Below are positions 7,230 through 62,931 of a stretch of 64,000 bases of DNA, piece after piece (position 1 is the stretch's first letter; each line of letters starts with the position of its first letter). Under the pieces are notes generated by a model that was not told where the DNA came from, searched no databases, and was given only the letters and a program-made list of their open reading frames with translations. Source of the stretch: an uncultured Actinomycetes bacterium (GTDB lineage Bacteria > Actinomycetota > Actinomycetes > S36-B12). The stretch covers positions 771 to 64,770 of the forward strand of contig CAJBZP010000022.1 of the NCBI GenBank assembly GCA_903960135.1. Direction: 5' to 3'. The position numbers and the translations under genes are program-made.

Positions 7230-7457
7230 TTACTCGTCATTCTCAAAGCAGGCAAACGCGATCCAGCACGAAGCGGTGTAAGAGGGTTTTTGGGTTTTGC
7301 CGATACCGGCCACGGCGGAACGCGCCCAACCCACCCCAAGTGCGAGTCGGTCAGACGGGGTTGAGCGAATACCCAAGGGGAACACGCGGGGAGCCGAAAC
7401 GCAACAACAAATGATCGACGGTCTAGAACCAACGGGGCAACCCCCATGAACGCCCAC
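7230..7457 (-). CDS. small-ORF family copy 1 (divergent, start codon uncertain)
   Basis: C-terminal 40 aa (SDRLALGVGWARSAVAGIGKTQKPSYTASCWIAFACFENDE) align with the ORFs at 21079..21246 and 27823..27990. Possible starts are GTG 7457 (75 aa) or GTG 7385 (51 aa). Neither has a good SD. Confidence 0.5.
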   Translation of the reverse strand: MGVHGGCPVGSRPSIICCCVSAPRVFPLGIRSTPSDRLALGVGWARSAVAGIGKTQKPSYTASCWIAFACFENDE

Positions 7458-13440: not shown

Positions 13441-15123
13441 TTACTTCGGCGGCCCAACCGGAATCCGCGCGGAAATTGGGCGCATGGTCTCAGCAAAGAA
13501 ATCATTTCCCAAGTCATCGACGACAACGAAGGCCGGGAAGTCGACAACTTCAATGCGCCAGACGGCTTCCATCCCAAGTTCGGGAAAGTCAAGGACTTCG
13601 ACTTTAGTGATGTTGTCCTGCGCCAAGCGCGCAGCCGGCCCCCCAATTGACCCAAGATAAAAACCGCCGTTGGTCTTACAGGCTTCGGTGACGGCTTTAC
13701 TTCTGTTGCCCTTGGCGAGCATGACGAATGAGCCACCGGCTTTCTGGAATAGATCAACGTAACCATCCATCCGACCGGCGGTGGTTGGCCCGAAGGAACC
13801 CGATGCGTAGCCTGCGGGGGTCTTGGCCGGACCGGCGTAGTAGACGACGTGGTTTCGGAAATACTCAGGCAGCGGTTCGCCTCGGTCCAGCATTGACTTA
13901 ATCCGTGCATGGGCAAGGTCACGAGCGACGATCAAGGATCCGGTAAGTGATACCCGGGTTTTTACGGGTAGCCCATGTAATTGCGCTCGGACCTCATCCA
14001 TCGGTACATCAAGATTTATTCGCACAACTTCATGCTCAAGTGTGGCTTCTTCGATTTCCGGTAAGTAGTGGGCTGGTTCGCGCTCGAGTGCTTCCAGGAA
14101 GACACCTTCGGGGGTGATCTTTGCCAGTGCCTGCCGATCAGCGGAGCAGGAAACGGCAATTGCCACGGGGCACGAGGCGCCATGGCGGGGGAGCCGGATT
14201 ACTCGCACATCGTGGCAGAAGTACTTGCCGCCGAATTGCGCCCCGATACCAAACTCTTGGGTCATCTTCCAAATCACTTGCTCCATTGCCAGATCGCGAA
14301 AGCCATGCCCTGTTGGTGAGCCGTGCACTGGCAAGGAATCGTAATAACGTGCGCTCGCGTATTTTGCGGTCTTGACGGCAAACTCGGCGCTGGTGCCACC
14401 GACGACAACGGCTAAGTGATAGGGCGGGCAGGCGGCGGTGCCGATGCTGCGGAGTTTTTCATCCAAGAAAGTGGCGAATGACTCGGGATTTAGGAGCGCT
14501 GCCGTTTCCTGATACAAAAAACTCTTGTTCGCACTGCCACCACCTTTGGCCATAAAGAGGAATTCGTAGGACTCCTCATGACCAGCATGGTCATTGGCAT
14601 AAATCTCAATCTGGGCCGGCAGGTTGTTTCCGGTATTGCGCTCCTCCCACATCGTGATGGGCGCGAGTTGTGAGTAACGCAGGTTGAGTTTTTGATAGGC
14701 GTCAAAGATACCGGCCGATAGGTGCTCGGCATCTGCACCGGATGTCCAGACGTGTTTGCCGCGTTTGCCCATGACGATCGCGGTGCCGGTGTCCTGGCAC
14801 ATTGGCAAGACGCCGCCGGCCGCGATATTCGCATTCTTGAGCAGGTCCAGTGCAACAAAGCGGTCATTGGGGCTGGCCTCTGGGTCGGTCAAAATCGAAG
14901 CAAGCTGCTCGAGGTGAGCTGGGCGCAGCAGGTGCGAGATGTCTTTGATGGCCTCAAAGGCCAAAAGGCGTAGGGCTGCCGGCTCGACCTGGAGGAAGGT
15001 GCGCCCGCCGGCTGACACGGTGGAAACACCATCGGTGGTAATCAGCCGGTACTTGGTGGTGTCATCGCCGAGGGGCAGGAGGTCTTGGTACTGGAAGTCC
15101 ATGCCCTCAGCGTAGACCTGCAT
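13441..15123 (-). CDS. class I (Fe-S) fumarate hydratase, fused alpha/beta type
   Basis: [19 protein letters not shown] and KGNRS motifs. The track ORF (to 15297) is an antisense-extended version. Likely starts are ATG 15123 or ATG 15102 ([12 protein letters not shown] aligns with the FumA N-terminus). Confidence 0.9.
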
Positions 15124-16108
15124 GTCTTGGGGCGGGGTGGTGCTCACACTGCAGTTCGCGGATGGTCCCGCTCTTGCTACGCATGACGATTGAATGGGTG
15201 GTGGGGCCGTCTGGGCCGAAGTGGACCCCGCGCAGGAGATCACCGTCAGTGATGCCAGTGGCGCAGAAGAAAATATTGTCACCGGTAACCAGATCATCAG
15301 TTGTCAGTACCCGGTCTAGGTCGTGCCCGGCAGCAATAGCCTTTTGTCGTTCCTCCGCATCACGTGGCCAAAGGCGGGCCTGGATGGTGCCTCCGAGGCA
15401 GGCCATCGCGCAGGCGGCAATGATGCCTTCGGGGGTGCCCCCGATGCCGGCTAGCAAGTCAACGCCGGTGCCTGGCCGTGCGGCCATAATGGCCCCGGCT
15501 ACGTCGCCGTCGGTAATGAATTTGATGCGGGCGCCAGCTTTACGCACGTTCTCGACAAGTTCTTCGTGTCGGGGGCGATCAAGGATGCAAACGGTCAAGT
15601 CAGCAATGCTTTCGCCCTTACGTGCAGCTATCTGCTCCAGGTTCCAGGCGATTGGTGCGGTGATGTCGATGACATCTGCGCATTGGGGCCCGACTACGAG
15701 TTTTTCCATATAGAAAACCGCACTCGGGTCGTACATGGCCCAGCGCTCCGCGACGGCAATGACGGCGATCGCATTTGGCATCCCCTTTGCCGCAAGAGTG
15801 GTGCCATCGATGGGATCGACGGCCACGTCGGCTTCTGGCCCGGTGCCATCTCCCACCCGCTCGCCGTTGAAGAGCATGGGAGCATCATCTTTTTCGCCTT
15901 CACCGATCACGACAACGCCGTTCATCGACACGCTGCCGATCAGCGAGCGCATGGCGTTAACGGCGGCCGCGTCGGCACCATTTTTGTCACCTCGGCCGAC
16001 CCAGCGCGCAGCCGCGATTGCCGCGGTCTCGGTGACCCGAACTAATTCCAGAGCCAGGTTGCGGTCAGGTACTTCGCCGCCGGCTACAGAGGTATTCGCA
16101 GCGCTCAT
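15107..16108 (-). CDS. glpX: class II fructose-1,6-bisphosphatase
   Basis: Strong GlpX-like sequence ([25 protein letters not shown]). ATG at 16108 follows GGAGG. Confidence 0.9.
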
Positions 16109-16162: not shown

Positions 16163-16732
16163 GTGTTGATGCAGCATCATTGTCTGGTGACCACACCCCA
16201 GCCGACCGGGCGACCCAATGCCCGAATGCGCCAGAGCGTTGCCGACATGGTGTGGTCCATGGGTTTGGTGCTGGCCCTGATCGGCGTAATTATGCTCGTT
16301 ACCCTCCGGCCGCAACCTGATGCGGTGAAAGTCGTTGACCCAACGCAGGTGTTGATAGCCGCTCGGGCCTTGGCCCCGTTCCCGGTATTGGTGCCCGAGG
16401 GTCTAGACGGATATCAGGTCACGAGCGCGAGGTGGCAGGAGACTGCGAAATCTGGTGGTGCACTCGTGCTGCACCTTGGGTACGTGACCCCGGGCAACCA
16501 GTACTTACAGGTCAGCCAGTCGGCGGCAACTAGCGGCGAGTTCATCGCGGAGCAGACTGCTGGCGGTATTGTGGTTGAGCAAATACGCATCGACGGTGCG
16601 CAGTGGCAATTATATGAAACTGCCGAGCGGATCTCATTAGTGCTGCTTGGTGACGAGGTCATCACGGTGGTTAGCGGTACGGCGACCCGAGAAGAACTCG
16701 AGCAGGTCGTGCGGTCCTTGAAGCCGAACTAG
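16163..16732 (+). CDS. DUF4245-like membrane-anchored protein
   Basis: Single N-terminal TM helix. Divergent from glpX, as in other actinobacteria. Family call is from memory. Confidence 0.55.
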   Translation: MLMQHHCLVTTPQPTGRPNARMRQSVADMVWSMGLVLALIGVIMLVTLRPQPDAVKVVDPTQVLIAARALAPFPVLVPEGLDGYQVTSARWQETAKSGGALVLHLGYVTPGNQYLQVSQSAATSGEFIAEQTAGGIVVEQIRIDGAQWQLYETAERISLVLLGDEVITVVSGTATREELEQVVRSLKPN

Positions 16733-16941
16733 TCGGGGGCCTTTGCCTGCTCTAGTCGGGCTCGGGTGGTGTTGAGCCAGCCCTGGCAAACGGCCGCAAG
16801 TTCTTCACCGCGCTCCCAAAGGGCCAAGGACTCCTCGAGCGTGAGACCACCGGCTTCGAGTTGCTGAACAATCAGCGAGAGTTCATCGCGCGCGGCTTCG
16901 AAACTCGGGTTTTCGACACTTTCTGGTTTCTTGCTGGTCAC
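16729..16941 (-). CDS. xseB: exodeoxyribonuclease VII small subunit
   Basis: 70 aa with FEAARDELSLIVQQLEAGGLTLEESLALWERGEEL. Overlaps the xseA stop. Confidence 0.85.
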   Translation of the reverse strand: MTSKKPESVENPSFEAARDELSLIVQQLEAGGLTLEESLALWERGEELAAVCQGWLNTTRARLEQAKAPD

Positions 16942-18086
16942 GCCTTCTCCTTCATTCGGGTTGCGGCAAAACGCCCCTTGGCTAAGCGAATATCAACTAT
17001 CTGATCGTCTTTTACCTGTGACTCGTCGCGCACGATCGCACCATCACCGGCGAGAACTATCGCGTACCCACGATCTAGAGTCGCAGCCGGCGACAGTGCG
17101 CGAACCTGCGCGGCTAGGTGCGCGATCTGGGCTGCCGACTTTTCGACCAGATGGGTGATAACCGTCGTCATTCTTCTGCGATGATCCTGGATCTTGGTGG
17201 CTTCGCGTTCGAATTGGTTCATCACCGAGACCCGTGCTCGGTTGCGCAGGGCGAGGACGATGGACTCCTGCTCGACAAGTGAAGGCACCACTCGCTTGGC
17301 CGCATCGGTGGGTGTTGATGCGCGTAGATCCGAGACAAAATCCAATAGTGGCGCGTCCTGCTCGTGACCGATAGCGCTAACAATTGGTGTCAAGCAGTTA
17401 CTAACGGCGCGAACTAGACTCTCATTACTGAAAGGTAGAAGATCCTCAACGCTGCCACCGCCACGCGTAATGATGATGACATCAACGTCTGGATCTGCCG
17501 CCAACTGCTCAAGCGCACCGATTACCTCGGGCACGCACTGCACACCCTGCACCGCGACTTCGCGAATCTCGAATTCGATACCGGGCCACCGGTCGTTAGC
17601 GTTCACGGTGACATCGTGCATGGCGGCGCTGCCCCGACCGCAGATCAAGCCAATTTTACGTGGCAAAAATGGAAGGGGCCGCTTTCGCTCTGCCGCGAAG
17701 AGCCCTTCGGCGGCGAGTAGCGTGCGCAGGCGTTCGAGTTGGGCTAGTAGGTCACCGATGCCGACGGCACGGATTTGCTTGGCTCGAAACTGCAGGCTGC
17801 CTTTGCCGGTGTAGTACTCGGGCTGAGCAAACACGATGATGCGCTGCCCGGCGGCTACCGGTGGCTCGACCGCACCGAGCACTTTCGCATCGGCCACGAT
17901 CGTGATCGACATCTCCACATCTGGGTCGCGTAGCGTCAGATAGAACTGCCGCGCGCCAGGGCGTGGCCGGTATTCGGCCACCTGGCCGTCAATCCAGACG
18001 GCCCCGAGACGGCCAACCCATTCGGCAACCGCCCGCGAGACAGTGCGAACTGCCGCCGGTTCCTCTGGCGTGGTCTGCAGTGCCAT
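16938..18086 (-). CDS. xseA: exodeoxyribonuclease VII large subunit
   Basis: 382 aa with an OB-fold N-terminus and ITRGGGSVEDL motif. Confidence 0.9.
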   Translation of the reverse strand: MALQTTPEEPAAVRTVSRAVAEWVGRLGAVWIDGQVAEYRPRPGARQFYLTLRDPDVEMSITIVADAKVLGAVEPPVAAGQRIIVFAQPEYYTGKGSLQFRAKQIRAVGIGDLLAQLERLRTLLAAEGLFAAERKRPLPFLPRKIGLICGRGSAAMHDVTVNANDRWPGIEFEIREVAVQGVQCVPEVIGALEQLAADPDVDVIIITRGGGSVEDLLPFSNESLVRAVSNCLTPIVSAIGHEQDAPLLDFVSDLRASTPTDAAKRVVPSLVEQESIVLALRNRARVSVMNQFEREATKIQDHRRRMTTVITHLVEKSAAQIAHLAAQVRALSPAATLDRGYAIVLAGDGAIVRDESQVKDDQIVDIRLAKGRFAATRMKEKA

Positions 18087-21078: not shown

Positions 21079-21246
21079 CTACTCTTCATTACCCTCAAAG
21101 CAACTACCGTTATAGGCAGAGATATAACCTGAGGGGCTCGAGGTGCCGCCGATTCTGCCGGCACCCGGGCGCACCCACCCAACACTTAGGGCCAACCGGT
21201 CACTTGGTGCCGAGCAAATTGGCGCGGCAACTTCACTCTTCGACAT
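21079..21246 (-). CDS. small-ORF family copy 2 (55 aa, below the ORF-track cutoff)
   Basis: ATG at 21246 follows AAAGGAAATCAA. An in-frame TAA 7 codons upstream fixes the N-terminus. Product is MSKSEVAAPICSAPSDRLALSVGWVRPGAGRIGGTSSPSGYISAYNGSCFEGNEE, about 32/55 identical to copy 3, with mainly synonymous changes in conserved blocks. Confidence 0.65.
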   Translation of the reverse strand: MSKSEVAAPICSAPSDRLALSVGWVRPGAGRIGGTSSPSGYISAYNGSCFEGNEE

Positions 21247-21333
21247 TTGATTTCCTTTACTAAGTTAACCCGCTGCTTGCGGCTATCACCAATGAGAACA
21301 CCGCTAGCACCTAATGGCAATGACCCGACGAGA

Positions 21334-22750
21334 CTCACGAAAAGTGCCCGCGAAACACTCTCCGTGCCTCACGTAGGAATGCCCGCGTAACGGTGAGCAT
21401 TCTTAGGCATGAGAAATGGGTTATCGATGACGTCTCGTGCCGAGATCACCACCAAGTACGCGAAGGTTTATGCGAAGGCTTCGAAGAAGGACAAGGGCCG
21501 GATCCTGACCCAGGTGATGGGGGTGACGGGTTGGTCGCGGGATAACGCCCGCCGCCGACTTACCTCGGCCGCGAAGCGGCCGCCAGGTGGTGGTAGGCAG
21601 GTCGCGAAACGGGCCCGAAAACCGAGGTCACCCAAGTTCTCCTATGACGCCGTGAAGTTGCTGCAGCGGGTGTGGGCAGCCTCAGGTGGCCAATGCGGGA
21701 AGTACCTCGCGGTTTCGATGCGCATCCAACTCGACGGGCTAGAACGCCACGGTGAGTTGGTCGGCGGCGTTAACCGTTACTCCGGTGCGGTGCGCCTAGA
21801 ATTGTTGGCGATGAGTCCGGCGTCGATCGACCGGTATTTGAAGCCGGCGAAAGCCACCGATCAGATCCGAGGTGTCTCGACTACGAAGGCGTCGCCGCTG
21901 CTGAGGTCCTCGATTCAGATCCGTAGGGCTACTGATGAGGTCGAGGCTGAGCCGGGGTTCTTCGAGGGTGACACGGTCGCGCACTGTGGGCCAACGCTGA
22001 AGGGCGAGTTCGCCCGGACGCTGAACCTCACTGATGTCCACACCGGGTGGGTATTCACCCGCACGGTGCGTAACAACGCCCACGTCCACATCCTCGGTGC
22101 GCTCAAAGCTGGCGTTGAACAGATCCCGTTCGAGGTTACCGGCCTTGACTTTGATAACGGTAGCGAATTTCTCAACAAGGACGTGATTAAGTGGGCTGGC
22201 GATATGGAGATTTTCTTCACCAGGTCCCGGCCCTATAAGAAGAACGATCAGGCCACCATCGAGTCGAAGAACAATCATCTGGTGCGCAAATACGGGTTCT
22301 ACTACCGCTACGACACCGAGGTTGAACGCACCGTGTTGAACCGGCACTGGAAACGGGTCAACGACCGGTTCAACTACCTGACCCCGACGAAGAAGCCGGT
22401 CGGGTTCGGCGCCGACCGGGGTGGCAGGCGCAAACGTCTCTACGACGATCCTGCGACGCCACTGGATCGGCTCATCGCCGCGAAAGTATTGTCCCCAGCC
22501 CAGGTAGAAGAACTCCTCGCATACCGAGACTCGTTAAACCCCGCCAAGATCGCCCGTGAGATCTCCGAACTACAAGTCATGCTCTTGAAACTAGCCAAGA
22601 ACAAGACCGAGCAGCTCTACCTCGCCAGCTTCCCCAGCGCACTGCCCGACATCCGCAAAGGCATCCGGATCAAAGCCTCATGAGCACCCACATTTCGCGG
22701 GCATATTTAATTGAGGCACCGACCAAGTTTCGCGGGCAATTTGACTTGAG
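21334..22750 (+). mobile_element. insertion sequence, about 1.4 kb, single DDE (rve-type) transposase
   Basis: Imperfect terminal inverted repeats of about 60 bp. Each carries two TGCCCGCGAAA/TGCCCGCG boxes and a GTGCCTCA box. End coordinates are approximate and no clear target duplication was found. Confidence 0.75.
21409..22683 (+). CDS. DDE transposase, integrase-core (rve) type
   Basis: 424 aa with an N-terminal HTH region and catalytic-triad candidates FEGDTVAH, LDFDNGSEF and QATIESKNN. IS family not assigned. Confidence 0.85.
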   Translation: MRNGLSMTSRAEITTKYAKVYAKASKKDKGRILTQVMGVTGWSRDNARRRLTSAAKRPPGGGRQVAKRARKPRSPKFSYDAVKLLQRVWAASGGQCGKYLAVSMRIQLDGLERHGELVGGVNRYSGAVRLELLAMSPASIDRYLKPAKATDQIRGVSTTKASPLLRSSIQIRRATDEVEAEPGFFEGDTVAHCGPTLKGEFARTLNLTDVHTGWVFTRTVRNNAHVHILGALKAGVEQIPFEVTGLDFDNGSEFLNKDVIKWAGDMEIFFTRSRPYKKNDQATIESKNNHLVRKYGFYYRYDTEVERTVLNRHWKRVNDRFNYLTPTKKPVGFGADRGGRRKRLYDDPATPLDRLIAAKVLSPAQVEELLAYRDSLNPAKIAREISELQVMLLKLAKNKTEQLYLASFPSALPDIRKGIRIKAS

Positions 22751-22794
22751 GCACTACGTGACCAAGCGGGGAAAATCTTGCTTTTCGCCGGGCA

Positions 22795-25521
22795 CTACGG
22801 CTGGGCAGCGGCCGTTGGCTGGAGAGCGGCGAAAATTAGTGGTGGGGCAAATGGCAAGTCTCGAAACCGGACGCCGGTCGCATCGGCAATGGCATTGGCG
22901 ATCGCCGGTGCCACCGGGTCGATCGGCGGCTCGCCTGCGCCTTTGGCACCAAATGGGCCGAATTTATCTGCCGTGCCCGGCACATAGACCTCTACCTTGG
23001 GTGCGTCCGCGAAGTTTGGGATGCGGTACATGCGTAGACCGGGATTGAGTACCTCCCCACGTGGACCATTTTGGAACCATTCGGTAACTGCCCCGCCGAT
23101 ACCCATGACGACGGCTCCTTCAACCTGCCCACGCAGGGCCATGGGGTTGATCACGGTGCCGGCATCCACCGCATGGGCCACCTGCAAGAACACGATATCC
23201 CCGGTGGTTGTATTAATCGCGAGCCGCACGCCATGCACATTGAATCCATTGCTAATCGGTGATCCGTACGCTCGTCTTGCCTGCGCCAAGGTCACACCAG
23301 CGTCTTCGGCTGCGGCGAAGAGTTCAACAAGGCTGACGGAAGCTTTACCGGACCGAACTTCGTCTGCTCCCAATACACAGTCATTTGGTTCCACTCCCAG
23401 GTATCGGGAGGCGAAATTGACGATTTTCAACTGCAATGCTTGGGCGGCGAGCGCCACGGCCTTGCCTGCGACATTAAGTCCAGCGCTGGCGAAAGCCCCG
23501 GTGTCCCAGCCACTTGCGGCAGTGTCGCCGTGCACCACGGTGACACGATCGACGGTGGTGTTCAAGGCGGTTGCGGTGAACTGTGCTTGGGCGGTAGTAG
23601 TCCCGTTGCCAAACTCGCAGGTGCCGACATTGACCTGGTAGGTGGAGTCCGCGAGGAGCGTGACACTGGCTTCAGATCGATGTTCGGTGGGTGGCGAGGA
23701 CTCGAACATCGAAATTGCATAACCGGAGCCGACCCGCCAATCGTCGCCACTTGGTGCCTCTACTCCATTGCCGCGCGCCATCGCTGTTTCTACCAGTTCC
23801 ATGCACTCGTCTAGGCAGTAGCCGCCCAATACGTCATCACCGGGGCTGCGCTCGATTCCAACATCGTCGCCTGGCACCACGACATTCCTGCGCCGCATTT
23901 CAAGGGAATCAATGCCCAGTGCCGAGGCTAGTTCATCAATTGCGCATTCAATTGCGAATGTTGTCTGAACCGCGCCATACCCGCGCATTGCCCCAGATGG
24001 CACATTGTTCGTGTAGACGGCGCGGCCGTCGTACTGCTTGTTATTGCACCGGTACCACGTCATTGAATTGCTGCTCGCATAGAGAACTTCGCCACCGTGA
24101 TTGCCGTAAGCACCGGTGTTTGACGTCACGTCCATCTTCATGGCGGTCAAAGTGCCGTCGGCAAGGGCCCCAAGCTTGACGATTACCCGCATCGGGTGTC
24201 TTGGTGCTGCTCCGTAGAACTCTTCTTCACGGGTAAACTCCCACTGCACCGGCCGGCCGGTGTCAAGGGTGGCAAGTAGGCACAGGTCTTCGGTAAACAC
24301 CTCCTGCTTAGATCCGAAGCCACCGCCGACCCGCTTGCTAAAGAGGCGGATTTCGCTCGCATGCAGGTCAAATAGATAACAGAGTTTGGCTTGGGCCAAG
24401 AATGGCGTTTGCGTGCTCGTTCGGACTTGAAGCACGCCGGTTTCATCGATCCAGGTGACACTGCCATGGGTTTCAAGGGGCGCCTGAGCCATCCGCGGCG
24501 TGTTATACGTTGCCTCATGGACGATGTGAGCCTGCGCGAATCCGGCCTCGACGTCACCGCGTGACTTGTTGAACTCAAGGAGAATGTTGCTTGCAGGGCG
24601 CTTCAAATGCCCATCGAGTGTTGAGCCTTCATGTAGCAGGGGTGCACCCGGTTGCATGGCCGCCGAGGGGTCAAAGACAGCCGGCAACTCCTGCCACTCG
24701 ATAGCCACCTGCCGGCACCCCTCTTCGGCAGCGCCAACGCTCTCTGCAACAACAGCCACCATGCGTTGCCCGATGAACCGGGCAACTTGGTCGAGCATGC
24801 GGGTGTCGTCGGGGTCTACCAGGTGGTTCTCGTGGCCGGCGGTGTCGTAGAGCTTGTCGGGTACGTCCTCCCAGGTGTAGACGGCAACAACTCCCGGTAC
24901 TGCCTTCGCGGCACTGGTGTCGATGGAGAGCACCCGCGCATGTGCATGTGGTGAGCGCACCACCTTCAGGTGAAGTAACCCGGTGATGTCGTGGTCGAGG
25001 GTGTACTGGGCGGTGCCGGTGACGATGCCCCTGCCGTCGGCCGGGCCGACACTGGCCCCCACCGCTTTTCCTGCGGCTGGCGCCTCGTCTATGTTCGTGA
25101 CGGCGTTAAGTGCATCCTCAATTGCTCGATAGCCGGTGCACCGGCAAAGTGACCCGCGCATTGCCGCCGGCAGGTCAGCTCGTTGCTCTTCGTTCATCCC
25201 TGCACAAGTCATGATCATGCCCGCCGTGCAGAAGCCGCATTGGAATGCGCAGGCTTTAAGGAACTGCTCCTGCATCGGATGCAGGTTGTCGCCGTCGGCT
25301 AGACCTTCGATGGTGGTGATCTCATGGCGTTCGGCCTGCACGGCTGACACCAGGCAACTGTGAACTGGCTCACCGTCAAGCCAAACCGTGCACGCACCGC
25401 AGTCGCCGCTGTCACAACCCTTCTTGACACCATGGAGACCCAACTCGCGCAAAAAGGTGCGTAAGCACTGACCGGGGTTCGGTGCCGCTTCGAAGGTTCG
25501 CCCATTAACTCTGATAGCCAT
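22795..25521 (-). CDS. molybdopterin-dependent hydroxylase (xanthine dehydrogenase family), fused [2Fe-2S] and MoCo-binding subunit
   Basis: N-terminal CDSGDCGACTV and CGFCTAGM ferredoxin motifs followed by aldehyde/xanthine dehydrogenase a/b-hammerhead and MoCo domains. ATG 25521 (MAIRVNG) is the likely start. Confidence 0.85.
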   Translation of the reverse strand: MAIRVNGRTFEAAPNPGQCLRTFLRELGLHGVKKGCDSGDCGACTVWLDGEPVHSCLVSAVQAERHEITTIEGLADGDNLHPMQEQFLKACAFQCGFCTAGMIMTCAGMNEEQRADLPAAMRGSLCRCTGYRAIEDALNAVTNIDEAPAAGKAVGASVGPADGRGIVTGTAQYTLDHDITGLLHLKVVRSPHAHARVLSIDTSAAKAVPGVVAVYTWEDVPDKLYDTAGHENHLVDPDDTRMLDQVARFIGQRMVAVVAESVGAAEEGCRQVAIEWQELPAVFDPSAAMQPGAPLLHEGSTLDGHLKRPASNILLEFNKSRGDVEAGFAQAHIVHEATYNTPRMAQAPLETHGSVTWIDETGVLQVRTSTQTPFLAQAKLCYLFDLHASEIRLFSKRVGGGFGSKQEVFTEDLCLLATLDTGRPVQWEFTREEEFYGAAPRHPMRVIVKLGALADGTLTAMKMDVTSNTGAYGNHGGEVLYASSNSMTWYRCNNKQYDGRAVYTNNVPSGAMRGYGAVQTTFAIECAIDELASALGIDSLEMRRRNVVVPGDDVGIERSPGDDVLGGYCLDECMELVETAMARGNGVEAPSGDDWRVGSGYAISMFESSPPTEHRSEASVTLLADSTYQVNVGTCEFGNGTTTAQAQFTATALNTTVDRVTVVHGDTAASGWDTGAFASAGLNVAGKAVALAAQALQLKIVNFASRYLGVEPNDCVLGADEVRSGKASVSLVELFAAAEDAGVTLAQARRAYGSPISNGFNVHGVRLAINTTTGDIVFLQVAHAVDAGTVINPMALRGQVEGAVVMGIGGAVTEWFQNGPRGEVLNPGLRMYRIPNFADAPKVEVYVPGTADKFGPFGAKGAGEPPIDPVAPAIANAIADATGVRFRDLPFAPPLIFAALQPTAAAQP

Positions 25522-25534
25522 AGTTTGATAGTCC

Positions 25535-26356
25535 TTAGGAGGCCGAAAGTTCGGTTCGGATTTGCTCGGCAAAGACATACGTCAGATGACGTCGGTGGGC
25601 TGGTGTCCCGTTTGGGTCATCGAAGTAGAGCTTTGCGGGAATCAGTTGGTCCACCGCTTTGCGAACTTGCTCGCTTGAGGGCAGACCGGTGAAACGTAGA
25701 TGGACCGGGTGGATCGTGGCAGCGCTCACAGTGATGAGAATTTCACTTGACTTCGTATCGTGAGTTCCCACGAGGTAGATGCTCGAGCGCCCATGCTTTG
25801 TCAGTGAGAACCTGCGGAGGGTGTAGTTCCTCATAAGCGAGGCCATGGGTAGGTGGATGGATCTCAGTAGCTCACCCGGTTGCAAGATGTTCGTGTTGTC
25901 TCCGGTGACGAAGTTGATCGCCGGCACAATTCGGTCGCTCCCATCCATTGCGAGCAACTTGTACTGGGCCTCTAGCGCCGCACCCATCGTCACCATCGGC
26001 CCGGCGGGCAAGGAGGCGCAGATATTGCCACCCACAGTCTGCCGATTCCACACTTTGAAGCTTGCGAGGTACTCCTCGACACTTTGTCGAAGGAATGGCC
26101 CTGCGCGCCAGTGTTCGGGTGGCTTGAATTCATGTAACTCGGTGATACCGCAGGTGGCGGCAATCTCCAGTCCGGCTTCACTTACGGTAATGCTCTGCCA
26201 GCCGGTGTCTGAAAGATCGCGCAGGCGGCGCAGGTGCGGCATCGGCTGACTGAATATCAAAGTGCCACCGGCGAGCCAGGTATCGCCATCTCGCCAGTCG
26301 TGGAACAGGTCCTGCGCGGGAGGCACGAGCATATCCGTCACGGTCGGCTGATCCAC
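25535..26356 (-). CDS. FAD-binding subunit of the molybdenum hydroxylase (CoxM/XdhB-like)
   Basis: 273 aa in FAD_binding_5-like layout, immediately upstream of the FeS/MoCo gene. Confidence 0.75.
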   Translation of the reverse strand: MDQPTVTDMLVPPAQDLFHDWRDGDTWLAGGTLIFSQPMPHLRRLRDLSDTGWQSITVSEAGLEIAATCGITELHEFKPPEHWRAGPFLRQSVEEYLASFKVWNRQTVGGNICASLPAGPMVTMGAALEAQYKLLAMDGSDRIVPAINFVTGDNTNILQPGELLRSIHLPMASLMRNYTLRRFSLTKHGRSSIYLVGTHDTKSSEILITVSAATIHPVHLRFTGLPSSEQVRKAVDQLIPAKLYFDDPNGTPAHRRHLTYVFAEQIRTELSAS

Positions 26357-26472: not shown

Positions 26473-27546
26473 GTGGCTTTAACCATTGGCATCGTAGGGC
26501 TCCCGAATGTGGGTAAATCCACCCTATTTAATGCACTCACCAAGAATGATGTGCTCGCTGCCAACTACCCGTTCGCAACCATTGAGCCGAACACGGGCGT
26601 CGTGGGCGTACCCGATCCGCGACTTGGTGTCCTCGCCAAGATCTTCGGGTCGGAACGTGAGTTGCCAGCAGCCGTGACGTTCGTCGACATCGCGGGAATC
26701 GTGAAAGGGGCCAGTGAGGGCGCGGGCCTTGGAAATAAGTTCTTGGCAAATATCCGGGAGTCAGAAGCGATCTGCCAGGTGCTGCGAGCGTTTCATGACG
26801 ATGACGTGGTGCACGTCGAAGGTCGAGTATCGCCCGAAGAGGATATGGAGACGATCAATACTGAGTTGATCTTGGCTGATCTCCAAACACTTGACAAGGC
26901 GATCCCGAGGCTGGAGAAAGAGGCACGAACTGATAAAACCAAAGCCGCCAACTTGGCTGCCGCGCAAGAGGCGCGTGCACTACTTGATGGCGGCACGACA
27001 ATTTTCGCATCGGGTATCGACACTTCGCCGCTGCGCGAATTGTTCTTGCTTACCGCTAAGCCGTTCCTGTATGTGATCAATGTCGATGAGCAAGAACTCG
27101 CCGATGCGGATTTTCAAAAACGCATGCGGGAACTCGTTGCCCCTGCTGAGGCTGTCTTCCTTGACGCGAAATTGGAGGCGGAACTCGTCGAACTACCCGA
27201 CGATGAAGCACTTGAGTTATTGCAGTCGGTCGGCCAGGTCGAATCTGGGTTACATGCGCTCGCGCGTGTCGGGTTCGCCACATTGGGTTTGCAGACCTAC
27301 CTGACCGCAGGCCCCAAGGAAGCCCGTGCCTGGACCATTCCGATCGGTGCAACCGCGCCTGAGGCCGCCGGGGTAATCCACACCGACTTCCAGAAGGGCT
27401 TCATCAAAGCCGAGGTTGTGTCCTTCGATGATCTAGTCGCCAATGGCTCGATGGCCGAGGCCAAGGCCAAGGGCAAGGTTCGCATCGAAGGCAAGGAATA
27501 TGTCATGGCCGATGGTGACGTGGTCGAGTTTCGCTTCAACGTCTGA
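26473..27546 (+). CDS. ychF: redox-regulated ATPase YchF
   Basis: 357 aa with GIVGLPNVGKSTLFNALT, DIAGIVKGASEG and a TGS-like C-terminus. Confidence 0.95.
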   Translation: MALTIGIVGLPNVGKSTLFNALTKNDVLAANYPFATIEPNTGVVGVPDPRLGVLAKIFGSERELPAAVTFVDIAGIVKGASEGAGLGNKFLANIRESEAICQVLRAFHDDDVVHVEGRVSPEEDMETINTELILADLQTLDKAIPRLEKEARTDKTKAANLAAAQEARALLDGGTTIFASGIDTSPLRELFLLTAKPFLYVINVDEQELADADFQKRMRELVAPAEAVFLDAKLEAELVELPDDEALELLQSVGQVESGLHALARVGFATLGLQTYLTAGPKEARAWTIPIGATAPEAAGVIHTDFQKGFIKAEVVSFDDLVANGSMAEAKAKGKVRIEGKEYVMADGDVVEFRFNV

Positions 27547-27548: not shown

Positions 27549-27764
27549 CTATGGGGTTTTATTGGCCCGCCTAGTGTTTCCCTCACAAACTAGATGCCCA
27601 GAGATACCTGCAAGTCCCCCAGATTGTTCACGGATTGCGGACTGGTTGCGGATCGAGGGGCATGCCTCAGCCCCATAGTCGTCGTGCCAGTCCAGATGAA
27701 ATCTGCCAAGGCAACCACTGGGGGCGGCCCAGTTCACTACCGTGAAAAACTGGCCCCCAACCAA
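27549..27764 (-). pseudogene. possible degenerate tandem copy of the small-ORF family
   Basis: Track ORF ends ...SAIREQSGGLAGISGHLVCEGNTRRANKTP. Plus-strand segments TTTCCCTCACAAAC (27577..27590) and GATACCTGCA resemble TTACCCTCAAAAC and GATACCACCTGCA of copy 3. It has an internal deletion and lacks the family stop position. Confidence 0.3.
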
Positions 27765-27822
27765 TATCGGTCAAGGGCCCGCAACAGGGTTTAAACACCG
27801 CACCTCACGGTAGGGACAGGTG

Positions 27823-27990
27823 CTACTTCTCATTACCCTCAAAACAGTAGCTCACACACCCGGCACCGTAAGAGGAGGGCTTTAGGGTGCCACCGATACC
27901 ACCTGCACCTGGGCGCACCCAATCAACACCGAGTGCGAGCCGATCGGTTGGCGCTGAACTTGCTGGGGTAGCAATATCAATATTTGGCAT
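27823..27990 (-). CDS. small-ORF family copy 3 (55 aa)
   Basis: ATG 27990 follows GGGAGCACCAA. Product is MPNIDIATPASSAPTDRLALGVDWVRPGAGGIGGTLKPSSYGAGCVSYCFEGNEK. In the track it appears only as the tail of a 249-aa shadow ORF (27823..28572). Confidence 0.7.
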   Translation of the reverse strand: MPNIDIATPASSAPTDRLALGVDWVRPGAGGIGGTLKPSSYGAGCVSYCFEGNEK

Positions 27991-28261
27991 TTGGTGCTCC
28001 CATCCGTTAACGGGCCGATACCCAAACGGGCACCTGTGAAGAAGAGTAAAATACTTCCGCCCTAAAACCAAGGGCTTAGCGACATTCTCCCCGGCTATGC
28101 CAAGACCTATCCCAAGAAGGCACCCCGAGTTCTTGTGACATGAATTAAATGAGCAATCAGGTAATGAGCTCGTCGAGGCTTTGTTACTGCTTGCGATCTC
28201 GATCATCTTGGCGTTGCTGCAGTTCGCCCGTTGGGCAGCAAAGGACCCATCGCGGCTGAGT

Positions 28262-28381: not shown

Positions 28382-30250
28382 GTGGTGACCCACCGCGAAG
28401 ATCTTCGAAATGTTGCCATTATCGCCCACGTAGACCACGGGAAAACGACTCTCGTAGACGCCATGCTGTGGCAGTCGGGCGCCTTTCGCGAGAACCAGGA
28501 CGTCAATGACCGGGTCATGGACTCCATGGATCTGGAGCGCGAGAAGGGCATCACGATCCTCGCGAAGAACACCTCCGTCCACTACACCGGCCCGGGTGCT
28601 CCCGACGGTGGCGTGACCTTCAACATCATCGACACCCCAGGCCACGCGGACTTCGGCGGCGAGGTCGAACGCGGCCTGGAGATGGTTGACGGCGTAGTGC
28701 TGCTCGTTGACGCATCCGAGGGCCCGCTGCCACAGACCCGCTTCGTGCTGCGTAAAGCCTTGCAGAAGAACCTGCCCGTGGTGCTCGTCATCAACAAGGT
28801 CGACCGCCCCGATGCCCGCATCGGGGAGGTGGTCGACGAGACCTACGAGTTGTTCTTGGATTTGGATGCCGACGAGAAGCAAATTGACTTTCCGATTGTT
28901 TACACCAGCGCAAAGGCCGGTCGCGCATCACTTACTCGACCCACCGACGGCGGTATGCCGGAGGAGGAAAACCTCGAACCTTTGTTCACCACCTTATTAA
29001 CTGCGGTGCCCGCACCAACCTACGACGAGGCCAAGCCTTTGCAAGCCCACGTCACCAACCTTGATGCCTCGCCGTACCTCGGTCGCCTTGCACTTTGTCG
29101 GGTGCACCAGGGCCACATTAAAAAGGGCCAGCAGGTTGCCTGGATGAAGGCCGATGGCACCGTCGAGCGCGTCAAGGTTGTTGAACTGTTGATTACTAAG
29201 GCGCTTACTCGCGTGCCAGCTGAAAGCGCGGGTCCGGGCGACATCATCGCGGTTGCCGGCATCCCGGAGATCACTATCGGTGAGACCCTCGCGGATATCG
29301 AAAATCCGGTGGCGCTACCGGTCATCACCGTCGACGAGCCATCGATCTCGATGACTTTCGGGATAAATACCGCGCCGCTTGCCGGTCGAAGCGGCAAAAA
29401 GCTCACCGCCAGTATGGTCAAGGCTCGACTGGAGCAAGAACTCGTCGGCAATGTCTCAATCCGAATGAATCCGACCGAGCGCCCCGACACGTGGGAGATC
29501 CAGGGCCGTGGTGAGTTGCAGCTCGCGATCCTCGTTGAGATGATGCGGCGCGAGGACTTCGAGCTCACCGTTGGCAAGCCCCAGGTTGTCACGCGCATCA
29601 TTGACGGCAAAATCAATGAGCCGATGGAGCGCCTGTCGGTAGATATTCCCGAGGACTACCTCGGTGTGGTTACCCAATTGATGGCACTGCGTAAGGGTCG
29701 CATGGAACAGATGGTCAATCACGGTACCGGCTGGGTCCGCATGGACTACATCGTGCCGGCCCGTGGCCTGATCGGTTTTCGCACCGAGTTCCTCACCGAG
29801 ACTCGTGGCACCGGCCTGCTGCACCACGTCTTTGATCGCTACGAGCCATGGCACGGTGAACTTCGTACCCGGCCAACCGGATCGCTAGTGGCCGATCGCA
29901 CGGGCCCGACAACTGGCTTTGCCCTCGCCAACCTGCAAGAGCGCGGCACCATGTTCGTCGGCCCCGGCACCGATGTCTATGAGGGCATGATCGTCGGGGA
30001 GAACTCACGATCAGACGATATGGACGTCAATCCGACTAAGGAGAAGAAGCTCACCAATATGCGCCAATCCTCCGGCGACATCTTGGTGCCCCTCATCCCG
30101 CACAAGCAGCTCAGCCTCGAGCAGGCCTTGGAGTTCTGCCGTGAGGACGAATGCGTCGAGGTGACTCCGGCTACGGTGCGGATCCGCAAGGTGCAGCTCC
30201 TTGCTGCCGATCGGGCCAAGGCCGGCCGGAAACCCAAACCCCAGAATTAA
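28382..30250 (+). CDS. typA: translational GTPase TypA/BipA
   Basis: 622 aa with [23 protein letters not shown] and NKVDR motifs. Confidence 0.95.
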
Positions 30251-56680: not shown

Positions 56681-57643
56681 ATGTCCAGTCCAAGAGTGCT
56701 GCGCTCGCGTCGCTCAAACCTCGCAGTGCCCGGCAGCAGCCCCAAAATGCTCGACAAGGCCCGCGGGCTGGCAGCCGACCAGATCTTCATGGATATCGAA
56801 GATGCCGTTGCGCCACTTGCCAAGCCCGAAGCGCGCAAGAACATAGTTGCTGCGTTAAACGAAGGCGGTTACGAGGGCAAGGTTCGCTCGGTGCGGGTAA
56901 ATGACTGGACTACCCAGTGGACTTATCAAGACGTGGTAGAAGTTGTTGAAGGTGCCGGCCCCAACCTGGATTGCATCATGTTGCCGAAGGTGCAAACAGC
57001 CGATCAGGTCGTGGCACTTGACCTGTTACTCACCCAAATCGAAAAGTCGAATGGTCTTGAAGTCGGCCGCATAGGCATTGAAGCGCAGATCGAGAACGCG
57101 CTCGGCCTGATCAACGTTGATGCCATCGCGCAGGCCAGCCCGCGGGTCGAGACCATCATCTTCGGCCCGGCCGATTTCATGGCCAGCATCAACATGAAGT
57201 CACTTGTTGTGGGTGAGCAGCCACCAGGTTATGACGTTGGCGATGCCTACCACTACATCTTGATGCGAATCTTGATGGCGGCTCGCGCCTTCGACAAGCA
57301 GGCCATTGATGGCCCTTATCTGCAGATCAAGGATGTCGATGGCTTCCGCCGGGTCGCTGGACGCGCGGCCGCTTTGGGTTTCGATGGCAAATGGGTTTTG
57401 CACCCGGGTCAACTGGACGCCGCCAATGAGATCTTCTCCCCGCGGCAAGATGACTATGACAAAGCCGAAATGATTCTTGACGCCTACGACTACTACACCT
57501 CTGCTGCCGGTGGCGCAAAAGGCGCCGCGATGCTCGGTGACGAGATGATTGATGAAGCCTCGCGCAAAATGGCGCTCGTAGTTTCAGCCAAGGGTCGTGC
57601 CGCCGGAATGGCTCGTACTCAGACTTTCACCCCACCGGAGTAA
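56681..57643 (+). CDS. HpcH/HpaI aldolase / citrate lyase beta subunit-like CoA-ester lyase
   Basis: 320 aa with RSNLAVPGSSPKM, IFMDIEDAV and LPKV motifs typical of CitE/malyl-CoA lyase. Confidence 0.85.
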   Translation: MSSPRVLRSRRSNLAVPGSSPKMLDKARGLAADQIFMDIEDAVAPLAKPEARKNIVAALNEGGYEGKVRSVRVNDWTTQWTYQDVVEVVEGAGPNLDCIMLPKVQTADQVVALDLLLTQIEKSNGLEVGRIGIEAQIENALGLINVDAIAQASPRVETIIFGPADFMASINMKSLVVGEQPPGYDVGDAYHYILMRILMAARAFDKQAIDGPYLQIKDVDGFRRVAGRAAALGFDGKWVLHPGQLDAANEIFSPRQDDYDKAEMILDAYDYYTSAAGGAKGAAMLGDEMIDEASRKMALVVSAKGRAAGMARTQTFTPPE

Positions 57644-57652
57644 AGGATTGCG

Positions 57653-58855
57653 ATGAAGAAGCTGGCGGAGACCGAAGGACTGACAGAGATTCAAGGCGAC
57701 ATCATTGCCGCAATTCGGGATTTTGTTGACAAGGAGATCCTGCCTTATGCGACGGAGTTGGAGCATAAGGACGAGTACCCGGCCGATATCGTCGATGGAT
57801 TGAAGGACCTTGGGGTCTTTGGCCTGATGATTCCCGAGGAGTATGGCGGTCTCGGGGAGTCGCTCCTCACCTACGCCCTCGTTGTTGAAGAAATTGCCCG
57901 GGGTTGGATGAGTGTCAGCGGCGTCATCAATACGCACTTCATCGTGGCATACATGCTCATGCATCACGGAACCGAGCAGCAAAAGCAGTACTACCTACCG
58001 CGGATGGCAACCGGTGAGGTGCGCGGTGCATTCTCGATGAGTGAGCCAGGGTGTGGTTCTGATGTGGCGGCGATTACCAGCAAGGCGGTCAAAGACGGCG
58101 ATGACTACTTGCTGACCGGCCAGAAGATGTGGCTGACGAATGGCGGGTCGTCAACCCTTGTAGCGGTACTCGTGCGCACCGATGATGTCGAAGCGGACGC
58201 CAGTGTCTATAAGAAGATGTCTACGTTCCTGATCGAGAAGCCGGCTGGGTTTGGTGAGGTAATTCCTGGCCTGACCATTCCGGGCAGGATCGAAAAGATG
58301 GGTTACAAGGGCGTGGACACCACCGAAATGGTGATGGATGGCGTCCGCATCTCGCAAGACAATCTACTCGGCGGGGTGCCCGGGCAGGGCTTCTATCAAA
58401 TGATGGATGGTGTTGAAGTTGGCCGGGTAAACGTTGCCGCTCGCGGCTGCGGGGTGGCGCTTCGGGCGTTCGAGCTCGGGATCGAGTACGCGCAGCAGCG
58501 GGTTACCTTCGGCAAGCCCATTGTCGAACATCAGGCGGTGGCATTTCGACTAGCCGATATGGCGACCAAAGTCGAAGCTGCGCATCAAATGATGGTGATG
58601 GCTGCACGTAAAAAGGACTCTGGCGAGCGCAATGACCTTGAGTCTGGCATGGCGAAATATCTCGCGAGCGAATACTGCAAAGAGGTGGTCGAAGACTCCT
58701 TCCGGATCCATGGTGGTTACGGCTACTCAAAGGAATACGAGATCGAGCGCTTGTATCGCGAGGCGCCGATGCTCCTGATTGGCGAAGGCACCGCCGATAT
58801 TCAACGCATCATCATTGCTCGCCGCCTACTCGAGGAATACAAAATCCGCACGTGA
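57653..58855 (+). CDS. acyl-CoA dehydrogenase
   Basis: 400 aa with FSMSEPGCGSD, WLTNG and IGEGTADIQR motifs. Confidence 0.9.
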   Translation: MKKLAETEGLTEIQGDIIAAIRDFVDKEILPYATELEHKDEYPADIVDGLKDLGVFGLMIPEEYGGLGESLLTYALVVEEIARGWMSVSGVINTHFIVAYMLMHHGTEQQKQYYLPRMATGEVRGAFSMSEPGCGSDVAAITSKAVKDGDDYLLTGQKMWLTNGGSSTLVAVLVRTDDVEADASVYKKMSTFLIEKPAGFGEVIPGLTIPGRIEKMGYKGVDTTEMVMDGVRISQDNLLGGVPGQGFYQMMDGVEVGRVNVAARGCGVALRAFELGIEYAQQRVTFGKPIVEHQAVAFRLADMATKVEAAHQMMVMAARKKDSGERNDLESGMAKYLASEYCKEVVEDSFRIHGGYGYSKEYEIERLYREAPMLLIGEGTADIQRIIIARRLLEEYKIRT

Positions 58856-59253
58856 GCACCCTGATCCCGTGCGTCGGTGCGGTGGTTTTCGATGAGGCCG
58901 GCGCATTGTTGTTAGTCAAGCGGGGCCACGAGCCGGCCCTTGGCCGCTGGTCGTTGCCCGGTGGTCGGGTTGAGCCCGGTGAAAGCCACGAGGCCGCCAT
59001 CATCCGCGAGGTCTTTGAGGAGACGGGCCTAACCATCTCGGTGGTGCGCGAGGTGGGCACGGTGCACCGAGCGGCCCCGGGGGGCGGCACCTACGTCGTC
59101 AAAGATTTCCTTGGCAAGTGCATCGAGAGTCGAATCCCGGTCGGGAATGATGACGCGGATGAGGCGAGCTTTTTCGCGCTCGAGGATCTGGGCGACCTAG
59201 ACACTAGCGACGGGCTGCTCGAAGCCTTGGCCGAATGGGGCCTAATCGACTAG
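58852..59253 (+). CDS. NUDIX hydrolase
   Basis: Nudix box GGRVEPGESHEAAIIREVFEETGL. GTGA overlap with the upstream stop. Confidence 0.85.
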   Translation: MSTLIPCVGAVVFDEAGALLLVKRGHEPALGRWSLPGGRVEPGESHEAAIIREVFEETGLTISVVREVGTVHRAAPGGGTYVVKDFLGKCIESRIPVGNDDADEASFFALEDLGDLDTSDGLLEALAEWGLID

Positions 59254-59276
59254 CAGGGCGGGGGTGAATTCAATTG

Positions 59277-59654
59277 TCACCGGGGGATATCGGCCCAGAC
59301 GGTAATTAGCTCGGGGTCGATGTCGGTGCCCCAGGAACCGGCGAGCGCTTCCACCAACTGCAGCCCACGCCCCCCACTGCCCGCAATCACCGGCCGCTGG
59401 TTTGTCATCTTCGGGATGGTGCCACCGGCCCCCCTGCGATTCGTCACCTCTAAGTGCAGGTTGTCGTCATCGATAACCAATTTGAGGTTTTGTGGCGGGC
59501 TACCGTGCAAAATCGCATTGGTGCACAACTCGGAGGCAATCGAGACGGCATCGGCGCCATCGCCCCAGGTAGCGAGGCTGGACGCCACCCATCCCCGGGC
59601 GGCGGCCGCGGCGGTGGTATCCGCTGGGAGCGTCCAACTATGTGTCACGGTCAT
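59277..59654 (-). CDS. HATPase-type anti-sigma regulatory factor (RsbW-like Ser kinase)
   Basis: 125 aa with ELCTNAILHG and GRGLQLV motifs. No partner STAS gene is nearby. Confidence 0.6.
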   Translation of the reverse strand: MTVTHSWTLPADTTAAAAARGWVASSLATWGDGADAVSIASELCTNAILHGSPPQNLKLVIDDDNLHLEVTNRRGAGGTIPKMTNQRPVIAGSGGRGLQLVEALAGSWGTDIDPELITVWADIPR

Positions 59655-59677
59655 GGCATACCCGATATCGCCGCGAA

Positions 59678-61120: not shown

Positions 61121-61164
61121 TCCCTTGAGTCTACCCGCTGGCCTTTCGCTAGCCTTCGACCACC

Positions 61165-61857
61165 ATGGATCAGCCGTCTCTTCAGACTTTGGACACCGAC
61201 CCGGAGTACCGGGCCGCGGTCGTCGACCTGCTTGCGGTGTTGGCCTACGGTGCGCTCACCGCTTTCGAACGGATCGCCGCTGATGCGGCGATGGCGCCGA
61301 CCATTGATGACAAGGCCGCCCTGGCGGCAATGGCGGCAACGGAGTATCGGCACTTTGAAACCTTGCGGAATCGCCTAGTTGAGCTTGGGGTGTCGCCGGA
61401 GGCGGCGATCGCACCATTTAGGCAGCCCCTTGAAGAATTCCACGCCCATACCGCGCCCAATGACTGGCTCGAAGGTTTGGTCAAGGCTTATGTGGGTGAC
61501 GGTATCGCCCTTGACTTTTATGTCGAGATAGCCAAGTACCTCGACCCGGAAACAAATGCGCTGGTACTAAGTGTCTGCGATGAAATGGGGCAGTCGGAAT
61601 TCGCGGTCGGCCGGGTCCGTGCCGCGATAGCCGCTGATCCGCGAATCGGTGGCCGGTTGGCGCTTTGGGGTCGGCGCCTTGTTGGCGAGGCCCTATCACA
61701 AGCGCAACGAGTCGCTGCTGAGCGCGATGCGCTCTCCAGTTTGTTGGTCGGTGGCGTTGATCGCCCCGGCGCGGACCTAGCGGAGATCGGGCGGATGCTC
61801 GCCCGGCTCACCGACAATCACACCAAGCGGATGGCCGCGCTCGGACTTGCCGCTTAG
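61165..61857 (+). CDS. ferritin-like fold protein of unknown function
   Basis: 230-aa helical protein with paired E..H-like motifs (EYRHFE, EEFHAH). Family call is tentative. Confidence 0.5.
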   Translation: MDQPSLQTLDTDPEYRAAVVDLLAVLAYGALTAFERIAADAAMAPTIDDKAALAAMAATEYRHFETLRNRLVELGVSPEAAIAPFRQPLEEFHAHTAPNDWLEGLVKAYVGDGIALDFYVEIAKYLDPETNALVLSVCDEMGQSEFAVGRVRAAIAADPRIGGRLALWGRRLVGEALSQAQRVAAERDALSSLLVGGVDRPGADLAEIGRMLARLTDNHTKRMAALGLAA

Positions 61858-61877
61858 CTCAACTGGGTTGTCGGCCG

Positions 61878-62105
61878 CTAGGAGGTGCTGCCGAACCCAA
61901 CTCGACGGGTTGATTCGGCGCCGACTTCGACATAAGCGATCTTCTCGGCGGGCACTAAGACGGTGCGTCCGCGCTCATCGGTCAGCGAGAGCAGGCCGCC
62001 TTTAGCAATGGCGGCTTCGACCGCCTTGATGATCTCGGCTTGCTCCTGTGCACTCTCGAGTGATATTTCGCGTGCGGTGTCTTGGACACCGATCTTGACC
62101 TCCAC
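61878..62105 (-). CDS. DUF3107 family protein
   Basis: GTG 62105 follows GGAGGACTGACC and gives VEVKIGVQDTAREISLES, a typical DUF3107 N-terminus. 75 aa. Confidence 0.75.
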   Translation of the reverse strand: MEVKIGVQDTAREISLESAQEQAEIIKAVEAAIAKGGLLSLTDERGRTVLVPAEKIAYVEVGAESTRRVGFGSTS

Positions 62106-62191
62106 GGTCAGTCCTCCTGTCAAGGGTGCAAGTGCTTTAACTGTGCTGCTGATAGTTGTGTTATGCGCTCATCGTGTCAAGGTGAGGTGGC

Positions 62192-62827: not shown

Positions 62828-62931
62828 AGCCTACCCGCCGGTAACCTGCGGTGTTGGGTTCAGGTCTGCCTCGATTTGGCCGGCTTGGGCATTCGGTACC
62901 GGCCCTTTGATAATGGGGGTATTCTGGTCCG

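Follow-up and report, generated by a model that had tools for sequence, protein, structure and literature searches.

The 64,000-nucleotide stretch of DNA that was analyzed here (referred to as the window) contains, on the minus strand in an 835-nt gap between ychF and typA/bipA, an intact 55-codon open reading frame that is preceded by a Shine-Dalgarno site and followed by an intrinsic terminator-like hairpin (Table 1). Two paralogs of this gene were found in the window, and we refer to the three as copies 1 to 3 in the order of their coordinates. Copy 2 is identical to copy 3 at 32 of 55 residues (tblastn E value of 3e-18), whereas the match to copy 1 gave an E value of 2e-10. No fourth copy is present in the window, as the next tblastn hit had an E value of 0.004. 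Copy 1 is the most divergent; its tail and stop codon are in frame, but its N terminus is not conserved and it has no clear start codon, and it may be decaying. A sequence-only reading had started copy 1 at the GTG at 7457, which gives 75 amino acids, but an in-frame GTG at 7385 gives 51 amino acids.

Table 1. Coordinates of the precursor genes, their parts, and neighboring features in the window
Feature	Coordinates	Strand	Description
ychF	26473..27546	+	Flanking gene
typA/bipA	28382..30250	+	Flanking gene
Precursor gene, copy 3	27823..27990	-	55 aa plus stop; MPNIDIATPASSAPTDRLALGVDWVRPGAGGIGGTLKPS / SYGAGCVSY / C / FEGNEK
Start codon, copy 3	27990	-	ATG
Leader, copy 3	27874..27990	-	Codons 1-39; near-invariant DRLAL.V.W.RPG motif (putative heterocyclase/RRE recognition), ending in (T)L(N/K)PS (putative PatA-type cleavage site)
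Predicted core, copy 3	27844..27873	-	Codons 40-49; SYGAGCVSY plus the invariant Cys49
C-terminal recognition (follower) sequence, copy 3	27826..27843	-	FEGNEK; family consensus FEGNEE
Stop codon, copy 3	27823..27825	-	
Shine-Dalgarno site, copy 3	27997..28001	-	GGGAG, 6 nt before the ATG
Conserved upstream region, copy 3	27991..28074	-	About 85 nt; possible promoter (TTGGTT, 17 nt, TACTCT; inferred only) and 5' UTR
Intrinsic terminator-like hairpin, copy 3	27742..27779	-	12-bp stem followed by a T-run, about 45 nt after the stop codon
Precursor gene, copy 2	21079..21246	-	55 aa, MSKSEV subtype; predicted core GYISAYNGS+C, tail FEGNEE
Divergent copy 1	7230..7385	-	...STPSDRLALGVGWARSAVAGIGKTQKPS / YTASCWIAFA / C / FENDE; start uncertain (GTG at 7385 or at 7457)
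tblastn match to copy 1	7233..7364	-	

The region upstream of the start codon is conserved among at least 35 non-redundant copies of the family, and GGAGCA at the Shine-Dalgarno site is conserved across copies. The upstream motif CCCTTGGTTTTAGGGCGG occurs once in the window, and a 14-nt match to the Shine-Dalgarno region at 63903..63916 was not significant (E value of 0.53). A strict sigma-70 scan found no promoter at this site.

A database search recovered 702 homologs, nearly all of them 52 to 60 amino acids long, without a Pfam domain and annotated as hypothetical. The exact copy 3 peptide is called as a gene in 218 blocks of the metagenome collection, and copy 2 is called as a 55-amino-acid gene in metagenome contigs, with its N-terminal subtype recurring at seven further loci (L006, L030, L032, L045, L047, L074, and L084; L numbers denote the genomic loci that were fetched). 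To avoid gene-caller bias, 855 kb of fetched DNA was searched with the N-terminal 29 residues alone, which gave 169 copies. Of these, 133 read on in frame to CFE..-stop although the middle part is 7 to 25 amino acids long; nine are cut off by contig ends, most of the remainder are in-frame variants such as CFAGNEE, PFEGNEE, or CFDGNEE, and a few look decayed. Over 103 canonical copies, pS was 0.30, pN was 0.105, and dN/dS was about 0.27 for the leader plus tail, and the entropies at codon positions 1, 2, and 3 were 0.35, 0.33, and 0.74. For copy 3 against copy 2, pS was 0.617, pN was 0.195, and dN/dS was 0.17. These results support translation of the family under purifying selection, although there are no transcript, peptide, or product data. 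AlphaFold2 with the family alignment predicted no fold (pLDDT of 57, pTM of 0.10, no secondary structure), as expected for a precursor peptide. An exhaustive profile search of 1.84 billion representative proteins returned only 66 hits, and the family is therefore narrow.

The family consensus is MPNIDIATPASSAPTDRLALGVGWVRPG(AG/VA)xIGGTLNPS, followed by a hypervariable stretch and then by CFEGNEE and the stop codon. The canonical set holds 89 distinct cores among 103 copies, with 7 to 19 amino acids before the invariant Cys; Cys is enriched 10.8x and Tyr 3.1x in the cores, while K, E, and D are depleted. Paralog pairs whose flanks are 90 to 98% identical at the nucleotide level (third positions 87 to 96%) have cores at the shuffled-sequence baseline of 0.48, as in two adjacent genes of locus L010 (WAPHMPSI against ANPWSGNYLVAPYL). 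The flanks are thus kept uniform while the cores are replaced or diversified. A diversity-generating retroelement target was rejected because the cores differ in length and at all bases.

All 101 confirmed genomic loci lie in about a dozen freshwater actinobacterial MAGs, which are labelled Ca. Nanopelagicales, acSTL, or acI-Baikal, with several lake MAGs mislabelled Bifidobacterium breve. The organism of the window is close to these MAGs, with TypA 96% and YchF 97% identical at the amino acid level. Lower bounds for copies per MAG are 38, 27, 26, 17, and 16. In these sister MAGs, copies sit at roughly 25 or more intergenic sites, many of them syntenic and beside housekeeping genes, in arrays of up to 10 (locus L009) and often at contig ends. 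A T2SSE/TadA gene follows one array, but it is simply the next syntenic gene and the peptide has no hydrophobic segment, so a role as a Flp pilin or Tad substrate was rejected.

Clustering of the open reading frames around 84 loci in search of a recurrent neighbor gave only synteny and an antisense artefact. When the large neighboring open reading frames were scanned, however, a gene encoding a Peptidase_S8 + PatG_D + PatG_C protein (9465-11522 of locus L051) was found to start 7 nt after a family copy. The genes that follow encode a 128-amino-acid protein, a second S8 + PatG_D + PatG_C protein, a ThcOx + nitroreductase oxidase, a 264-amino-acid protein, a sulfotransferase fused to a PqqD-type RRE, and a YcaO protein; a DHA2 MFS exporter completes the cluster. 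In a PDB sequence search, the first subtilase matched PatA/PagA (4h6v, 1.6e-84) and the second matched both the PatA-type 4h6w (1e-62) and the PatG macrocyclase 4h6x (7e-59), whereas the full-length YcaO of locus L093 matched LynD (3e-145) and TruD (4e-140). Both subtilases exceed the curated NCBIfam cutoff for TIGR03895, "PatA/PatG family cyanobactin maturation protease" (723 and 453 bits against 421), and the YcaO passes TIGR03604 and TIGR03882, the latter being a leader-peptide-binding domain model. The core gene order (PatA-like, orf127, PatG-like, oxidase) recurs across about 20 loci, many of them partial contigs. The G-type protease has about 48 close homologs, all from freshwater or actinobacterial sources, after which identity drops to 30 to 35% against cyanobacterial PatA/PatG.

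Family copies or homologous precursors were found beside this cluster in several lineages. Locus L060, from CAMAVT01, has the same cluster beside a copy. In more distant clusters (L089, L090, L092, and L094) the adjacent small genes share an MP..SP..(V/I)DRL.L leader, and several carry two cores, each followed by CF(D/E)A.., as in ...GYGPISLMCFDASDTAAPSTAQQNLTCTGYACFDASDE; this is the multicassette layout of PatE. Locus L093 has the full cluster, between rpoBC and rpsL, with no precursor within 10 kb, and trans-encoded precursors are therefore needed there. The window itself contains no gene of the cluster, as tblastn with eight cluster proteins found nothing at an E value of ≤1e-6, in agreement with the sequence-only reading that no maturation enzyme lies there. 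Nor was the cluster found in the window's own MAG (GCA_903939615.1), in its closest relatives, or in the high-copy sister MAGs with the contig look-ups and metagenome scan that were made. Only one MAG (WLNQ01, loci L051 and L029) was shown to hold both the cluster and dispersed copies, including positional orthologs of copy 3 between ychF and typA, and it is only 89% identical to the window in TypA.

The most likely explanation, which we hold with fairly high though not full confidence, is that the open reading frame encodes a ribosomally made precursor peptide of a cyanobactin-type RiPP pathway found in freshwater Actinomycetota related to the Nanopelagicales. Cyanobactin precursors have been described as hypervariable cores flanked by conserved cleavage sites, with PatA cutting at the N-terminal site and PatG cutting at the C-terminal site and macrocyclizing (PMC4603692; PMC11575548). 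G enzymes act after a thiazoline or a proline and bind the C-terminal recognition sequence (RSIII) through capping helices, that sequence being AYDGE or SYDD in PatG substrates and FAGDDAE in PagG substrates (bioRxiv 10.1101/2020.03.17.996157). In the 103 canonical copies the residue before CFE is never Pro and the Cys is invariant. We therefore read the Cys as the heterocyclized P1 residue and FEGNEE as the recognition sequence, and LNPS as the PatA-type site, since it appears to resemble the G(L/V)E(A/P)S sites of PatE (VEPS/LEAS).

In the mechanism inferred from these comparisons, the leader (residues 1-39) docks on the leader-binding domain of the heterocyclase, and Cys in the core, including Cys49 and possibly also Ser/Thr, is cyclodehydrated to azolines that the oxidase converts to azoles. 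The PatA-like protease then cuts after LNPS and the PatG-like protease between the invariant Cys and FEGNEE, although the cleavage sites rest on analogy only, and the excised peptide of 8 to 20 residues is exported. The predicted cores are SYGAGCVSYC for copy 3, GYISAYNGSC for copy 2, and YTASCWIAFAC for copy 1. Because the enzymes are not in the window, in this scheme they must act in trans on precursors scattered around the chromosome, as ProcM does on the prochlorosins. Macrocyclization is doubtful. The alignment of the G-type protease to PatGmac 4h6x splits, with query residues 6-53 aligning to chain residues 16-63 and query residues 54-298 to chain residues 99-352, so that 35 residues corresponding to the PatG capping helices are absent, while the same protein aligns end to end with the PatA-type 4h6w; the catalytic Asp/His/Ser motifs are present. 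This tips the balance slightly toward a linear product with a C-terminal thiazol(in)e, but both the linear and the cyclic product remain tentative and the linear one is only marginally ahead.

The sequence-only reading had argued that selection acts on a protein rather than on an RNA or a repeat, that the peptide has a leader-like part, a variable part, and an invariant tail, and that it loosely recalls a RiPP precursor, although it could not place the family. All three points are supported here. It missed that the family is far larger than three copies and that the invariant Cys plus FEGNEE matches a cyanobactin C-terminal recognition signal.

It remains possible, although unlikely, that the dispersed copies, including those in the window, descend from cyanobactin-type precursors but are no longer processed, either because the cluster is absent from this genome or because only cluster-adjacent copies are used. 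The failure to link the cluster to the window's MAG or its closest relatives is consistent with this, as are the degenerate copy 1 and visibly decayed copies elsewhere, such as ...SEGSLAGCIYGG and ...AAYCDESFVRQCGM. However, the leader and tail of the dispersed copies are under purifying selection and are better conserved across lineages at the nucleotide level (86 to 87%) than ychF (71%), and each copy keeps its Shine-Dalgarno site, upstream region, and terminator. The recurrence of the exact copy 3 peptide in 218 collection blocks and the absence of a local precursor at L093 also argue against relic status. A free-standing small protein, in which an unconstrained linker joins two conserved segments and the protein acts as such, for example by binding a conserved partner, is less likely still. 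There is no signal peptide and no adjacent enzyme in the window, the core could be a fast-evolving linker, and at about 84% ychF identity positional orthologs would have diverged anyway. However, no fold is predicted, cores are unrelated even where flanks are 96% identical within one genome, the core is strongly biased in composition, with charged residues depleted, and the family is repeatedly adjacent to PatA/PatG/YcaO clusters, with two cassettes in some relatives. A noncoding element (an RNA gene, a REP/MITE-like repeat, or an IS-borne passenger) is already largely refuted: copies do break assemblies as repeats do, conservation extends about 85 nt upstream and about 30 to 60 nt downstream of the open reading frame, and an IS lies 80 nt upstream of copy 2, but Rfam gave no match at gathering score in the window and no sensible one at an E value of ≤10 at the locus, the weak 5' UTR hairpin has a covariation term of only −0.39 kcal/mol, homology to the IS stops before the open reading frame unit, and the codon-position pattern, dN/dS, and frame retention all argue for coding.

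Literature searches found no description of this family or of PatA/PatG clusters in freshwater Actinobacteria, although this is not proof of novelty. On the reading favored here, the family gives a function to otherwise unexplained long intergenic regions and to small genes annotated as hypothetical, explains assembly breaks in these MAGs, and offers a natural library of at least 89 distinct cores for broad-substrate RiPP enzymes. Genome-mining tools that look for precursors only beside clusters would miss almost all of these genes. More tentatively, an abundant freshwater actinobacterial lineage with a small genome may run a combinatorial peptide library in which one promiscuous PatA/PatG + LynD-type + oxidase cluster, in one clade with an RRE-fused sulfotransferase, processes about 40 chromosomally dispersed precursors kept uniform in leader and follower and made different in the core. 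With no capping helices in the G-type protease, this would be a new actinobacterial branch of cyanobactin-type chemistry, possibly yielding sulfated thiazole peptides, and an independent second case of the prochlorosin strategy.

Compared with the cyanobactin pathways (patellamide, trunkamide, and prenylagaramide), the enzyme families are the same, with the YcaO aligning full-length with LynD and TruD and the oxidase being of the ThcOx/SagB type, and the precursor follows the same logic of a leader, an N-terminal cleavage motif ending in (A/P)S, a hypervariable core ending in Cys, and an acidic aromatic C-terminal recognition sequence. However, the host belongs to the Actinomycetota rather than the Cyanobacteria, the G-type protease lacks the capping-helix insertion, one clade of clusters adds the sulfotransferase-PqqD fusion, no product is known, and most precursor genes lie far from the cluster at tens of copies per genome. 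The precursor is also not detectably homologous to PatE-type leaders; no Pfam or NCBIfam model, including the cyanobactin and Nif11/NHLP leader models, matched the window peptides at an E value of ≤10 or the L051 and L090 precursors at ≤0.001. The linear cyanobactins (aeruginosamides and viridisamide) appear to be short peptides that are cut out on both sides by PatA/PatG-family proteases without macrocyclization and carry a C-terminal thiazole, a possible outcome here, although they are probably distinguished by their cyanobacterial origin, prenylation and methylation, and cores of 3 to 5 residues. The organization resembles that of the prochlorosins of Prochlorococcus and Synechococcus, in which one biosynthetic locus serves many ProcA precursor genes with near-identical leaders and unrelated cores that are scattered through the small genome of an abundant planktonic bacterium, although a single cluster per genome was not shown here. 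The chemistry is unrelated, as prochlorosins are class II lanthipeptides with a Nif11-type leader and a LanM enzyme, whereas the enzymes found beside the homologs described here are PatA/PatG/YcaO; there is also no C-terminal follower of that kind here. The Streptomyces "cyanobactin-like" polyazole macrocycles (curacozole, YM-216391, and aurantizolicin) are likewise actinobacterial and use a YcaO plus an FMN oxidase to make azoles in a short core flanked by a leader and a C-terminal extension, but those clusters lack the class-defining PatA/PatG proteases (PMC11575548), whereas the clusters found here have both.

An insertion sequence (IS) of about 1.43 kb, which encodes an rve-integrase transposase (PF00665) and has terminal inverted repeats of about 50 bp, ends 80 nt upstream of the copy 2 ATG. 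The same IS family lies in the same divergent position next to copies of the precursor family in two of the loci recovered from related genomes, L023 and L025, and it may prefer the conserved upstream region of these genes as a target. In sister MAGs (loci L010, L026, L027, L048, and L052), ychF is followed directly by rmuC, whereas in the window a segment of about 5.4 kb lies between them, holding FAD_binding_5 and Mo-cofactor dehydrogenase genes, the IS, and copy 2.

The right end of the window (HpcH aldolase, acyl-CoA dehydrogenase, NUDIX, DEAD helicase, MiaE-like, TetR, and alpha/beta hydrolase) is syntenic with loci L009, L023, L045, L053, and L066, where 1 to 10 tandem family copies follow the hydrolase and precede a TadA-like T2SSE ATPase. 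The window stops about 180 nt before the point where the array begins in L009. In L090, one of the loci carrying a maturation cluster, the whole cluster sits immediately upstream of the same tad locus. Several lake MAGs (L007, L011, L014, L021, L023, and others; CAMBQX01, CAMDKJ01, and CAMAVT01) have about 57% GC and actinobacterial plankton gene content but are titled "Bifidobacterium breve" in their public records, which is evidently a mislabel.

The leader and tail DNA of the copy between ychF and typA in the window was compared with that of L029, a locus from a different lineage, and was found to be 86-87% identical even though the ychF genes of these lineages are only 71% identical. This suggests gene conversion, transfer, or an extra constraint on synonymous sites. 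A conserved antisense ORF of about 165 aa overlaps the precursor genes in L001 and 14 other loci; it is an artefact of the repeated conserved sequence and could be miscalled as a gene.

Coordinates of features in the window and in the compared loci
Sequence	Coordinates	Strand	Feature
Window	21326..22758		IS
Window	21409..22683	+	Transposase ORF of the IS
Window	21079..26356		Region compared with L010, L026, L027, L048, and L052
Window	22795..26356		FAD_binding_5 and Mo-cofactor dehydrogenase genes
Window	56681..64000		Right end, syntenic with L009, L023, L045, L053, and L066
Window	62932..63840		Alpha/beta hydrolase
Window	27826..27990		Precursor DNA compared with L029
L029	5509..5928		Region compared with the window precursor DNA
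L001	9982..10509	-	Antisense ORF overlapping precursor genes
L051	17252..18490		Sulfotransferase-PqqD-type fusion
L093	15134..16354		Sulfotransferase-PqqD-type fusion
L051	11723..12109 and 16465..17259		Two conserved cluster ORFs
L093	9609..9992 and 14347..15141		Two conserved cluster ORFs
L111	3073..5732		Variant cluster

Two conserved cluster ORFs of about 127 aa and 264 aa, present in the cluster loci L051 and L093, had no Pfam or NCBIfam match. A variant cluster in L111 pairs the PatA/PatG-type proteases with a short YcaO plus TfuA, which is a thioamidation-type pair, in place of the fused LynD-type heterocyclase. In one clade, the cluster includes a sulfotransferase fused to a PqqD-type RiPP recognition element. 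The cores are enriched 3.1x in Tyr, and peptide sulfation would be an unusual tailoring step for a cyanobactin.
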